Assembly (NCBI RefSeq): GCF_044324785.1
Contig: NZ_CP172127.1
Strand: one strand, 5' to 3'
DNA: 64,000 nt
From: Escherichia coli
GTDB lineage: Bacteria; Pseudomonadota; Gammaproteobacteria; Enterobacterales; Enterobacteriaceae
Positions within the stretch are counted from its first letter, which is position 1. Each line of letters opens with the position of its first letter. Position numbers: made by a program. Below, one piece after another: positions 1 through 3,000 of this stretch.

Positions 1-3000
1 TTCATTACATCACTCCGGTGAATACAAATCTAATAAAGCGTCCAATGTTATTTCCGGAGCACTTCATCTTACATGTTTCTAAAGAATCATTAGACCAGTC
101 AGGGCAAGATTACGAAAGCCCGCTCCCCGCAAGGACTGACGCGAGATAGTTTCTGTCCATGGCTGCTTTTCGCATCTTACGTCTTAACCCTGCCTTGAAT
201 ACCTTATCATTCGTCAAAATATTAATAGCAATGTGCCGTATCCCTGAAAATAATTCTGCTGCGTTTCCTCTTCTTATTTTGCAGTCGTCTTCATTCATTA
301 CCACGTCCAGACGCCAGTGCAGCTTATTCTCCACGTGCCAGTGGTTTCGGATTGCTGTGGCGAACTTCTCAGCGGTTAAATCAGCAGAACTGATATAATA
401 TCTGACCGTCATTTCTGGCTCTTTCTTTTATTCTGCTATTATTGACCGAAAGGAGACTGCCACGCATAATTTTTCAGTCCTTTCTATTCAAATGTAAAAT
501 CAATAAGTTCATCAGCGACATCGCAAACAATATGAAGACGGATTTCTTCTCTGCCGTGACTCTTTTCACTAATTGCGTAACTGTCATGCTCTGGATTATT
601 TAATTCTTTCAGCGGAAATGTTTCCTCAAAGGCTTTATTCAACCGCCCCTGGTTTCCTTTTACAGCGAATAAGTAATCACCACCCTGTTTTTGTATCTTC
701 TCTGCAATATCTTTCTGGCAACCTATCGCATCAGTTGTGATGATTTTCCCTTTAATATACAAAATGTTAAGAAGTTCAGGGATAGCTGTGATCTCATTAG
801 ATTTCTCATCCGTCCTGATCTGCCCCAGGACCAGAATGTGCATTGTTGAGAACGCACTAATAACATGAATCGCTCCCCTTCGGCGACTCTTATCATAAGA
901 GTGTCGGAGCATTTTTCCATCAATTGCAATGACGTCTTTATCATCTGAAGAATGGCAGTCACGCATCCAGTTAATAAAGCACTCATGAAATTTTGCAGGG
1001 CTGATACAGGATACAACTCTGGCAATGGTATCGTGGACAGGAATACCATTTTCAAAATCACCGTATTGTTTTAAAAAATCGAGATGTGTTTCCCCAAAAT
1101 CCTCTATATCTTCCCAACCTTCTGCACCCGAAATAACGGCACAAATAGTCAACAGTAGAATATCCGATAATTTATGTTCCACTTTCCAGGCTTGTCTGTA
1201 ATCGGGGATAATAGAAATATGCTCCATCAATTTTTTAAGTTCCATTTTGTTCTCCTTAATTATGTAAGGAGTATTTGATCATGTATAAGCAATAAAAAAC
1301 AGCTTTAGGTAATGAGGAATATCTCAATTTTCAAACATAAAATGCGAATTATTTAGTACAAAAAAGCAGCGTTACGTGATCTTTCCCTGGCATGTCATTA
1401 GATGAACCAGTTATACAACCCTCGGAACAGAATCGAGGTCCTAAAGACGGACCAAAAGCGTTTAAACAACTATGTATTGAAAATCCATTACGATTATAAG
1501 TTCCTGTATTAACTGACGGTACTAATCGTATGCCGTCAGGTTTTCTATTGCTTGCTCCCGGGTCATTAACATTCCAACTCCATAGGCCTTGAGGTATTGG
1601 CCCTCTATTTATAAATGTGTACAACGGGGATTATTTTTACATTGCATATTATTACCAGAAGCGACTGGAATACTAAGCACATCATAAAAATTATCATCAC
1701 CTGGTATATCTGAAACACACGAAAGCATACCTAAAGTTATGCTGTATAAACAGGTGGCTAATCCCAAGGGGATCGATTCCAGAAATCGGGTTCAACGGAT
1801 ACTGATAAAAATTCCACCTACCTTCCAGCCCAATCGGAGCCTGAGTGTTATACCGCCCCTGCTGCGGTTAATGTTACCGATAATAGTTATAGTACAGCCC
1901 TGATTCATCATCATACTACTGCTGCGGCAGTCTGATGAATTATTGCTTTTACGGATTCTCCTTATTCTTCCTTCTATCCATTCGCTTTAGCTTTTTGAGA
2001 TCTTGAAGTTTGCTCTTTGCATCAATATTACCGTTATTTACAGCGAATTCCATCCAATAAATAGCTTTATTCAAATTATAATGTTCTGATAATATTGGAT
2101 TTGTATCCGATAAAAAAACCCCATAATTAAACTGCGCTGTAACATTCCCCTGAGATGCTGATCTTTCTAAGTATCGCAATTGTTTGTAAATGTTATTTTT
2201 AGTAAAGCAGTAATATTGATATAGTCGAAATGATGCCTCTGAATCACCATGTTGTGATTTATACTTCAGTTTCATCAACTTTTCTTCACTTAAATCATAG
2301 GTCATTGCTGTAGACCCCATCATACTTTCGTTTTGTTTTATTTTCACATCAGCACCATGCAATTGAAAAATAAAAGAAAAATAAAAAAATAGTAACAAGC
2401 ATGCTTTCATACATCTACAACCTATCTTATATCACTGGGTTTTTCTGGCGTACCTTGCATATTAGAAATGGGGTGCCCAGATGGCCCATATGTTATCCAA
2501 TTACCAAGGTCTTTTGTTGTTATAGCCATTAGATCCTTATTTGAATTAAGGTTCGTTGGTGCTGTTAGCACTGTATCCATTTTTAACTTACCATTAGTTC
2601 CTCGCCCCCACCACGTCCATAGCGTGTCAGGTCCTATTACATTTGTATGTAACTCTTTAGCTAATTGGCTAGCAAATGAATTTTGTCCTTTACCTGTATT
2701 ACAAGAAAATAACCAAACTGTCATCCCATCTTTATAATTCCCATCAAATTTAATTAGATATGCTAGATCTTTAGCTGTCATGATACTGCGCGTTGCGGAT
2801 TCAATAGATGTGGGGGTACCATGCCCCCCGATTGTGAAAACGCCTGGGATATTAATCTCATCAGCTACAGAATGGATAAGATCACTTTCGGGGTATAAAT
2901 TTATATCAACCAAACCTTGCGGATCTACATTTATGACCGGATTCAACGGATACTGATAAAAATTCCATCCCCCCTTCAGCCCAATCGGATCCTGAGTGAT

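Follow-up and report, generated by a model that had tools for sequence, protein, structure and literature searches.

Which kind of toxin sits at the tip of an Rhs protein when the protein encoded directly behind it appears to be destined for export? This question is raised by an rhs gene (2422..6651, minus strand) in a 64,000-nucleotide stretch of the Escherichia coli contig NZ_CP172127.1 (assembly GCF_044324785.1; this whole stretch is hereafter the window), whose 1409-residue product ends in a 162-residue tip and is followed by yibG, a gene for a 153-residue Sel1-like-repeat protein. A preliminary description of the window had proposed that the signal-bearing partner is an immunity protein and implies a toxin acting in the periplasm. 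We consider it probable, with moderate confidence, that the two genes form an Rhs toxin-immunity pair in which the tip, a predicted clan CD cysteine peptidase, acts in the periplasm and exported YibG provides immunity, the periplasmic site of action being deduced from the predicted destination of the immunity protein. The more general proposal, that YibJ-type tips (a family of at least 729 representatives) are caspase-fold, that is clan CD, toxins killing from the periplasm and neutralised by secreted Sel1-repeat proteins, stands in our judgement at about an even chance.

The rhs gene, recovered from the open reading frame (ORF) list and by the NCBIfam RHS_core model, adjoins rpmE and priA and is labelled 'RHS element core protein' in RefSeq. 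Its conserved core (residues 1-1247; 2911..6651, minus strand) comprises the N-terminus, the YD-repeat shell and the Rhs-associated core domain; RHS_core (NF041261) matches it with 2626 bits over residues 1-1247 and Rhs_assc_core (TIGR03696) also stops at residue 1247, so that the 162-aa tip (2425..2910, minus strand) begins exactly at the end of the conserved core. As read from the sequence, the core terminates in the motif DPQGL (residues 1243-1247; 2911..2925, minus strand), the expected boundary of Rhs autoproteolysis, and the rhs stop codon (2424..2422) is separated from the yibG start codon by an 11-nt spacer (2411..2421, minus strand). The core has a guanine-plus-cytosine (GC) fraction of 0.62, which drops to 0.39 for the tip and to 0.31 for the ORF that follows. 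The abrupt switch to an AT-rich tip after DPQGL, claimed in the preliminary description, is borne out by the coordinates, the model ends and the fall in GC alike, and the gene shows the conserved core, the DPxGL-type end and the tip of different base composition by which an Rhs module is recognized. The 962-bp module formed by tip, spacer and yibG is kept in 3428-3507 of 5426 complete E. coli genomes (~63%), nearly always as a single chromosomal copy, and the downstream ORF is therefore not a chance ORF.

Predicted fold and active site of the tip

The tip sequence itself had zero matches in Pfam (searched to E = 10), NCBIfam, PADLOC and the PDB, and a word-indexed search retrieved relatives only from E. 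coli and Salmonella, at 44-47% identity. A structural model of the tip was obtained with a predicted local distance difference test (pLDDT) value of 94 and a predicted template modelling (pTM) score of 0.90. In this model H30-G31 follows a strand at residues 24-28 and C70 follows a strand at residues 64-68, which is the His-then-Cys order of clan CD, and the top 18 structural matches are all clan CD cysteine peptidases. They are led by Tce1, a DUF4347 protein of the H3 type VI secretion system (T6SS) of Pseudomonas aeruginosa (9qpe; match score 8.7), the cysteine protease domains of the Vibrio cholerae MARTX toxin (8.1) and of TcdA (7.6), gingipain K (7.2) and CHAT (6.5), followed by TcdB, legumain, GPI8, C11 peptidases, gingipain R and metacaspase (6.4-4.6). 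The Foldseek comparison suggested in the preliminary description gave a concordant picture, with RTX cysteine protease domains and legumains at the top of the PDB list, and in AFDB50 the nearest non-identical neighbours of the tip include proteins labelled 'Peptidase C80' and 'DUF4347'. From the model and the sequence evidence given below we predict, at high confidence, a minimal peptidase-fold domain of clan CD built around a His30/Cys70 dyad.

Profile analysis of the family points to the same two residues. An exhaustive search of 1.84 billion representative proteins with the tip-family profile yielded 729 relatives (E <= 1e-3). Alignment of 48 divergent sequences of the family leaves H30, G31 and C70 as the sole invariant columns. 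Among the C-terminal-type copies, both His and Cys are retained by 126 of 127, and among the internal repeats by 39 of 40. Against the PDB, the profile gave only three matches, all weak (E = 0.15-1.5) and all to legumain-type enzymes; in these alignments the His-Gly pair of the tip falls on the catalytic His of legumain and the tip Cys on its catalytic Cys. We accordingly designate His30-Gly31 (2818..2823, minus strand; His1277 of the full protein) as carrying the predicted catalytic His, and Cys70 (2701..2703, minus strand; Cys1317), the sole Cys of the tip, as the predicted nucleophile. The suggestion, speculative when first made, that the His-Gly dipeptide and a Cys could form a hydrolase active site thus gains predictive support from invariance, from the legumain alignment and from the modelled fold. 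Exactly one Cys is present in 91 of 122 toxin domains of the family, and the single Cys of the window tip is counted in favour of a periplasmic site of action.

The relationship to named Pfam families is distant. Among the 48 relatives, one matches Peptidase_C80 (1.5e-4) and four match DUF4347 at <=0.1, and scattered family members also reach C13 and C25; the window tip has no match to Peptidase_C80 (PF11713) or DUF4347 (PF14252) at E = 10. The tip is best treated as representing a separate family within clan CD, one without a current Pfam model. With an isoelectric point (pI) of 5.7 the tip is acidic, from which we consider a basic activation pocket of the inositol hexakisphosphate (InsP6) type unlikely.

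Several other identities were considered for the tip. An alpha/beta-hydrolase or Tle-type lipase with a GxSxG elbow does not suit the conserved order of His before Cys, and that fold is absent among the top structural matches, as are NlpC/P60 and permuted papain amidases. The tip fold gives no support to a phospholipase or phosphatase, which had been guessed for the orthologue of enterohaemorrhagic E. coli (EHEC) from its Sel1-repeat partner. Of a nuclease or deaminase, named beforehand as the finding that would count against the original proposal, there was no sign in Pfam, NCBIfam, PDB or structural searches.

The position of the domain argues that the tip is a toxin and not a processing domain: in the family it reaches the C-terminus of the protein in 112 of 123 extracted segments, a DPxGL-like motif precedes it in 59 of the 104 members having upstream sequence, and a dedicated partner gene constantly follows it, as described below. 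Copies at other positions also exist. Giant proteins of 2-7 thousand residues hold 2-5 internal copies of the domain, and the retention of the dyad in these copies fits serial autoprocessing modules in multi-toxin proteins. In P0111-P0115, P0119 and P0123 (3-7 thousand residues), 3-5 copies with a His/Cys core of ~80 residues lie ~180-1800 residues apart.

The Sel1-repeat partner and its predicted export

The product of the gene downstream of the tip (1949..2410, minus strand), named 'yibG: SEL1-like repeat protein' in RefSeq, is predicted to be an exported immunity protein cognate to the tip. Its N-terminus reads MK, ACLLLFFYFSFIFQL, LHG/AD (the slash marks the predicted cleavage position here and below), with one K/R residue, a lysine, followed by an uncharged run of 18 residues and a single -3/-1 site, after G19 (19/20). 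A heuristic scan predicts a Sec signal peptide over residues 1-19 (MKACLLLFFYFSFIFQLHG/AD; 2354..2410, minus strand), and the rest of the protein is without a hydrophobic segment. By the same heuristic, the n/h/c signal pattern is present in 9 of 9 YibG homologues (49-93% identity) despite diverged sequence in this region. Pfam matches to the window YibG comprise TPR_27 (4.9e-4) and a weak Sel1 (0.5), Sel1 being reached at <=0.1 by 5 of 14 family members; the YibG-family profile matches solved Sel1-repeat proteins in the PDB at E = 1.4e-44, and the YibG half of the fusion model described below consists of paired helices with a pLDDT of ~90. The ORF scan, the signal heuristic and the profile comparison (about E = 1e-44) hence agree with the initial reading of a 153-aa ORF 11 nt downstream that combines a signal-like hydrophobic N-terminus with a Sel1-like repeat.

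Promoter and terminator sites found by scanning around yibG were no more numerous than in shuffled sequence, so that an internal immunity promoter is neither supported nor excluded; a genomic SELEX (systematic evolution of ligands by exponential enrichment) listing for K-12 places an RpoD site between yibJ and yibG.

The association between tip and partner was surveyed in 10 divergent toxin loci (L003, L004, L005, L007, L009, L012, L013, L015, L016 and L017), obtained as contigs encoding individual family representatives, whose toxins are mostly 35-55% identical to the window tip; an alignment-pattern search of genome contigs for related loci matched 20 sites, none of which was confirmed. The contigs retrieved for P0146, P0154 and one duplicate of P0122 end too soon to reveal a downstream gene and are not among the ten. 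The gene directly after the toxin aligns with YibG in 10 of 10 loci, sharing the motifs G-D-x-E-A-A-F-R-L-Y-x-Y-Y, A-Q-Y-N-L-G and W-L...A...G, which indicates that the tip family and the exported Sel1-repeat family have co-diverged as a pair. An N-terminal Sec or lipoprotein signal was recognized heuristically in 9 of the 10 distant partners, and is obvious in the called or longest ORF in seven. In L009 (partner 6997..7410, called from 7051), an in-frame ATG with a Shine-Dalgarno sequence 54 nt upstream adds the signal MKKHQMLLTCLLVSSFNIMQA/D, and in L012 (partner 683..1198, called from 767) an upstream ATG overlapping the toxin stop adds a lipobox, ...FLISFSGG/C. In L017 (3238..3345), an A-run separates a signal-like segment, MMYNYKKTQAVILFSLYIFFCQA/C, from the Sel1-repeat body, and the two stand in different frames; this is either a genuine frameshift or an error in sequencing the homopolymer. 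L017 is a common orphan copy, its toxin protein being indexed in 238 blocks of the collection. The partners in L009 and L012, like EHEC z5018 (132 aa, compared with 153 aa in the window), are annotated from an internal Met; evidence of export is hidden because such late start calls strip the signal peptide or lipobox. Gene callers and published annotations often start these immunity genes too late, masking the clue to the compartment.

Two of the surveyed loci show a wider context. In L004, vgrG and PAAR genes lie upstream of an Rhs gene with a tip of the same family, which is followed by a Sel1-like gene. In the Salmonella enterica subsp. salamae locus L015 (1638..3376), further orphan cassettes come after the toxin pair, one consisting of an Rhs fragment that bears a TseH-like tip together with Imm58 and another giving a weak PLA2G12 match; several envelope-directed toxin types are thus stacked in one array.

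The tip was joined to mature YibG through a 30-residue Gly-Ser linker, and this 326-residue fusion was modelled with 11 paired sequences. The model has a pTM of 0.74, with both domains at a pLDDT of ~90. Since, by our own arithmetic, neither domain on its own accounts for more than ~0.5 of the 326 residues, the two domains appear to dock confidently, and the model supports direct binding of the tip to YibG. Taken with the YibG-family gene in all ten loci and the signals in nine of them, the predicted docking favours the view that the exported partner implies a periplasm-acting toxin.

The YD shell of Rhs proteins encloses the tip, which is released by autoproteolysis at a conserved boundary. 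In the mechanism that we propose, the tip would be made inside the shell and, following this established biology, freed by cleavage at DPQGL; it would be carried into an adjacent cell, with a T6SS spike and a PAAR-type N-terminus as the likeliest means, and in the periplasm would cleave an envelope protein or a peptide-containing envelope polymer. YibG would be exported by Sec, its signal being cut near G19/A20 or kept as a membrane anchor, and its Sel1-repeat solenoid would bind and neutralise the tip in the periplasm. If this is correct, the target could be a specific envelope protein or, alternatively, cell-wall transpeptidation in the manner of legumain or GPI8.

The K-12 counterpart, the neighbouring array and alternative readings

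The window tip and yibG are ~99% identical at the DNA level to K-12 yibJ-yibG, an orphan cassette downstream of rhsA-yibA. The two tips differ in one codon of 162, CAA (Q82) having become TAA in K-12, 12 residues past the predicted catalytic Cys; yibJ is annotated as a pseudogene because the Q82 codon is a stop. K-12 yibG is intact and differs from the window gene at 10 of 153 codons, 6 of them non-synonymous, and its integrity beside a nonsense-carrying yibJ is counted in favour of an immunity role. An orphan pair of dead toxin and intact immunity gene, such as K-12 yibJ'-yibG, would protect its bearer against strains with the live toxin. The K-12 and window modules share the 11-nt spacer and the 153-aa Sel1-repeat gene, and differ in that the K-12 copy is an orphan fragment whereas the window tip is in frame with a complete Rhs protein at the rpmE locus. 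The preliminary description had regarded the tip as unlike the nuclease tips of K-12 RhsA-E; the same tip does occur in K-12, as the yibJ pseudogene beside yibG. Neither yibJ nor yibG of K-12 has an assigned function, and YibG is still counted in the 'y-ome' of uncharacterised E. coli genes. The main rhsA of EHEC EDL933 carries the same tip in fused form (z5017), with z5018 as its Sel1-repeat partner, a description made in silico only (PMC7216683).

Two details of sequence variation were noted. Divergence between the window module (1949..2910) and its K-12 counterpart (L002, 8678..9639) is lopsided (tip 1/162, yibG 10/153 codons), in a sample too small for a claim about selection. YibG of strain ECSC054 (L001, 9591..10058) has 155 aa: its basic C-terminal tail reads …KKLKLKRMD…, the two residues 'LK' being duplicated, and it carries the substitution N88S.

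The next cassette of the array (1349..1932, minus strand) is an rhs fragment left as an orphan; its Tlde1/YkuD-like tip is frameshifted, and RefSeq annotates it as a pseudogene. Its core remnant reads …QQ, a stop, then YDDESGLYYNYYR…, and the tip that follows is split into ORFs at 1609..1767 and 1349..1624. This tip carries the motif 'HSC…SEGCITG' and matches Tlde1_dom (0.011) and YkuD (0.12) weakly in Pfam; on the motif and these matches it appears to be a decayed L,D-peptidase-type toxin, of a kind known to act in the periplasm. The K-12 equivalent is yibS/yibW, followed by yibV, the product of which (L002, 10346..10681) is a full-length Imm57 (PF15596, E = 1e-48). Beyond the orphan cassette, an ISAs1-family (H-repeat) transposase gene (110..1245, minus strand) is split into ORFs 484..1245 and 110..412, the equivalent gene being annotated as frameshifted in RefSeq. 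The element sits where the immunity gene of the orphan cassette would be expected, cutting the cassette off from it.

The proposed periplasmic toxin-immunity pair has to be weighed against several observations that count against it. The Leu at -3 of the YibG signal is not ideal, and the signal was called by a heuristic; docking is judged from the pTM of a model built on only 11 paired sequences. Neither the interval between rpmE and rhs (6652..7023 of the window) nor the flanks of rhs contain a vgrG, hcp, PAAR or chaperone gene. Gram-positive bacteria have members of the tip family too, and giant actinobacterial toxins contain it as internal repeats; the copies there probably act as releasing peptidases. 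The closest solved relatives act in the eukaryotic cytosol, and Tce1 and Tce2 are without immunity genes and not antibacterial (PMC13323088). Finally, the oxidising periplasm can hold cysteine peptidases inactive, as has been argued for the C39 toxin StbD; this restraint is countered by the presence of only one Cys in the tip and by the existence of periplasmic Cys amidases (Tae).

The alternative that survives best, which we regard as unlikely but deserving of serious attention, keeps the fold and the compartment and changes the substrate: the dyad would serve an amidase or transpeptidase acting on peptidoglycan stem peptides or on the Lpp-peptidoglycan link, in parallel with the Tae amidases or with clan CD ligases and transamidases. 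The characterised cysteine hydrolases delivered to the periplasm by T6SS are peptidoglycan amidases. Transpeptidases and ligases (GPI8, asparaginyl ligases) are among the structural and profile matches of the tip, the adjacent cassette of the same array is itself a Tlde1/YkuD-like peptidoglycan enzyme, and both Tae and Tlde1 are listed in PMC10469887. Against this reading, sequence does not separate a protein from a peptidoglycan substrate, and the nearest structural relatives of the tip (C80, Tce) cleave proteins.

A somewhat smaller chance is given to the reading that the module is an evolutionary relic, with intact ORFs that this strain does not deploy for want of a working delivery system. 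The absence of T6SS genes beside this rhs would fit, as would the pseudogene in K-12 and the frameshift and ISAs1 insertion in the neighbouring cassette; moreover, the annotation of most copies in E. coli is that of an orphan fragment, the sampled rows in the 95-99% identity band showing the module under 'RHS repeat-associated core domain' fragments. Against this, the window tip continues the reading frame of a complete 1409-aa Rhs protein and is amino-acid-identical to the ECSC054 copy, ~377 genomes hold a copy at >=99% identity, the one sampled row among these being a full 'RHS element core protein', and yibG is transcribed in K-12. In any case, decay would bear on the use of the module and not on the identity of its domains. 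As to the surroundings of the gene, rpmE (ribosomal protein L31; 6811..7023) is encoded on the same strand, 159 nt upstream of the rhs start codon, and neither the transcription of this rhs nor its loading for delivery is evident from the gene layout of the window. The T6SS route proposed above draws on a PAAR motif reported in the EHEC orthologue z5014 (PMC7216683) and on the vgrG-PAAR-Rhs arrangement in L004.

We consider it improbable that the tip acts in the target cytoplasm or on eukaryotic cells, with YibG as an unrelated envelope protein or membrane-anchored factor. Such a site would suit the closest solved structures, which work in the eukaryotic cytosol, and the antibacterial cysteine peptidase toxins Cpe1 and StbD, which act in the cytoplasm, and Cell-PLoc predicts an inner-membrane location for YibG. 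It would leave unexplained the homologous, signal-bearing Sel1-repeat gene after the toxin in every one of the divergent loci and the predicted docking of tip and YibG; in addition, Tce1 and Tce2 lack the adjacent immunity gene that the window module possesses, and the acidity of the tip speaks, in our view, against an InsP6-type pocket.

Least probable of all, at a small fraction of the weight we give to the toxin-immunity pair, is that the domain is a non-toxic autoprocessing or releasing peptidase, as most 'Tox-Caspase' versions are held to be (Zhang et al., 2012; PMC3482391): the dyad-keeping internal copies and the actinobacterial proteins in which the fold precedes an ART, TNT or pierisin-like toxin domain would agree with it, but the window domain is last and has nothing downstream to free, an Rhs protein detaches its tip through autoproteolysis of its own, a dedicated partner gene that is conserved and codes for a secreted product is a hallmark of toxins, and the same authors regard C-terminal versions as likely toxins.

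Comparison with known systems

In the literature searched (yibG/yibJ, Tce1, DUF4347, and Rhs clan CD or periplasmic toxins), we found no experimental study of the yibJ-yibG module and no description of a secreted Sel1-repeat immunity protein paired with a clan CD toxin and a periplasmic site of action. The module is an uncharacterised Rhs cassette of a predicted class, Tox-Caspase; its sequence has long been in databases and its architecture is conventional. Should the proposed pairing hold, the tip would be an antibacterial effector of clan CD, of which we found no earlier record, aimed at a kind of envelope target undescribed for T6SS or Rhs toxins; K-12 yibG would receive a function for the first time, that of an orphan immunity gene. 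With yibJ and yibG present in ~63% of complete E. coli genomes, K-12 included, both genes gain a hypothesis that can be tested in standard laboratory strains, and the tight link to a secreted Sel1-repeat partner can be used to find and sort hundreds of family members.

The toxin class was already known in silico: Zhang et al. (2012; PMC3482391) predicted 'Tox-Caspase' domains at the C-terminus of RHS and T6SS toxins, together with internal caspase-like arrays. The window tip has the features by which that class is defined, namely a caspase-like alpha/beta fold, a conserved His and Cys, and a position at the extreme C-terminus of an RHS-repeat toxin, and internal arrays are present in its family as well. 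It differs in that the immunity proteins listed for Tox-Caspase are Imm36 and Imm57, not a secreted Sel1-repeat protein, and that no compartment was proposed (PMC3482391). Imm57 is listed there with both Tox-LD-peptidase and Tox-Caspase in gammaproteobacteria; we infer that its link to Tox-Caspase may be an artefact of the yibJ-yibG-yibS/W-yibV array.

Tce1 (PA0256), the leading structural match, and Tce2 (PA2372) are Hcp3-loaded effectors of the P. aeruginosa H3-T6SS (PDB 9qpe; PMC13323088). At 13% identity they have no sequence-level match to the tip; they are Hcp cargo and not Rhs tips, have no neighbouring immunity gene and are non-toxic in E. coli, and Tce2 is toxic in yeast, for which reason their authors regard them as anti-eukaryotic (PMC13323088). 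The C80 domains form the other structurally close group.

C80 domains of MARTX toxins and TcdA/TcdB are internal, InsP6-activated autoprocessing modules used in the eukaryotic cytosol. The window tip, by contrast, is terminal and acidic and has a predicted immunity partner, and at the sequence level PF11713 is matched by 1/48 relatives and, at E = 10, by the window tip not at all.

In the organization of the pair, the module resembles Tae/Tai and Tlde1/Tldi1, each with a small Cys/His hydrolase and a downstream signal-bearing immunity protein (PMC10469887, PMC7216683). The folds are NlpC/P60 and YkuD in those systems as opposed to clan CD here, the immunity folds are unrelated, and their peptidoglycan substrates are known. 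On the immunity side, the Sel1-like-repeat architecture of YibG is shared by PA5086-PA5088 (Tli5b), which confer immunity to PldB. The YibG-family profile matches PDB 5jkp at 3e-7 and 5jjo at 5e-6, which we take to be PA5087 and PA5088, PldB immunity proteins. YibG is much shorter, with ~2-3 repeats, and the toxin partnered by PA5086-PA5088 is a phospholipase D. The EHEC study had likened z5018 to the PldB Sel1-repeat immunity proteins, and guessed a phosphatase- or phospholipase-type toxin (PMC7216683).

Cpe1 and StbD-CT (C39, papain-like), like the window module as proposed here, are interbacterial cysteine peptidase toxins with cognate immunity proteins; in contrast to it, they are clan CA enzymes that attack GyrB and ParE in the cytoplasm, where their immunity proteins are likewise located. 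To our knowledge, the antibacterial cysteine-peptidase toxins characterised so far are papain-like, being either cytoplasmic (Cpe1, StbD) or peptidoglycan amidases (Tae). Next to these systems, a caspase-fold toxin working in the periplasm would join toxin type and target in a new way.

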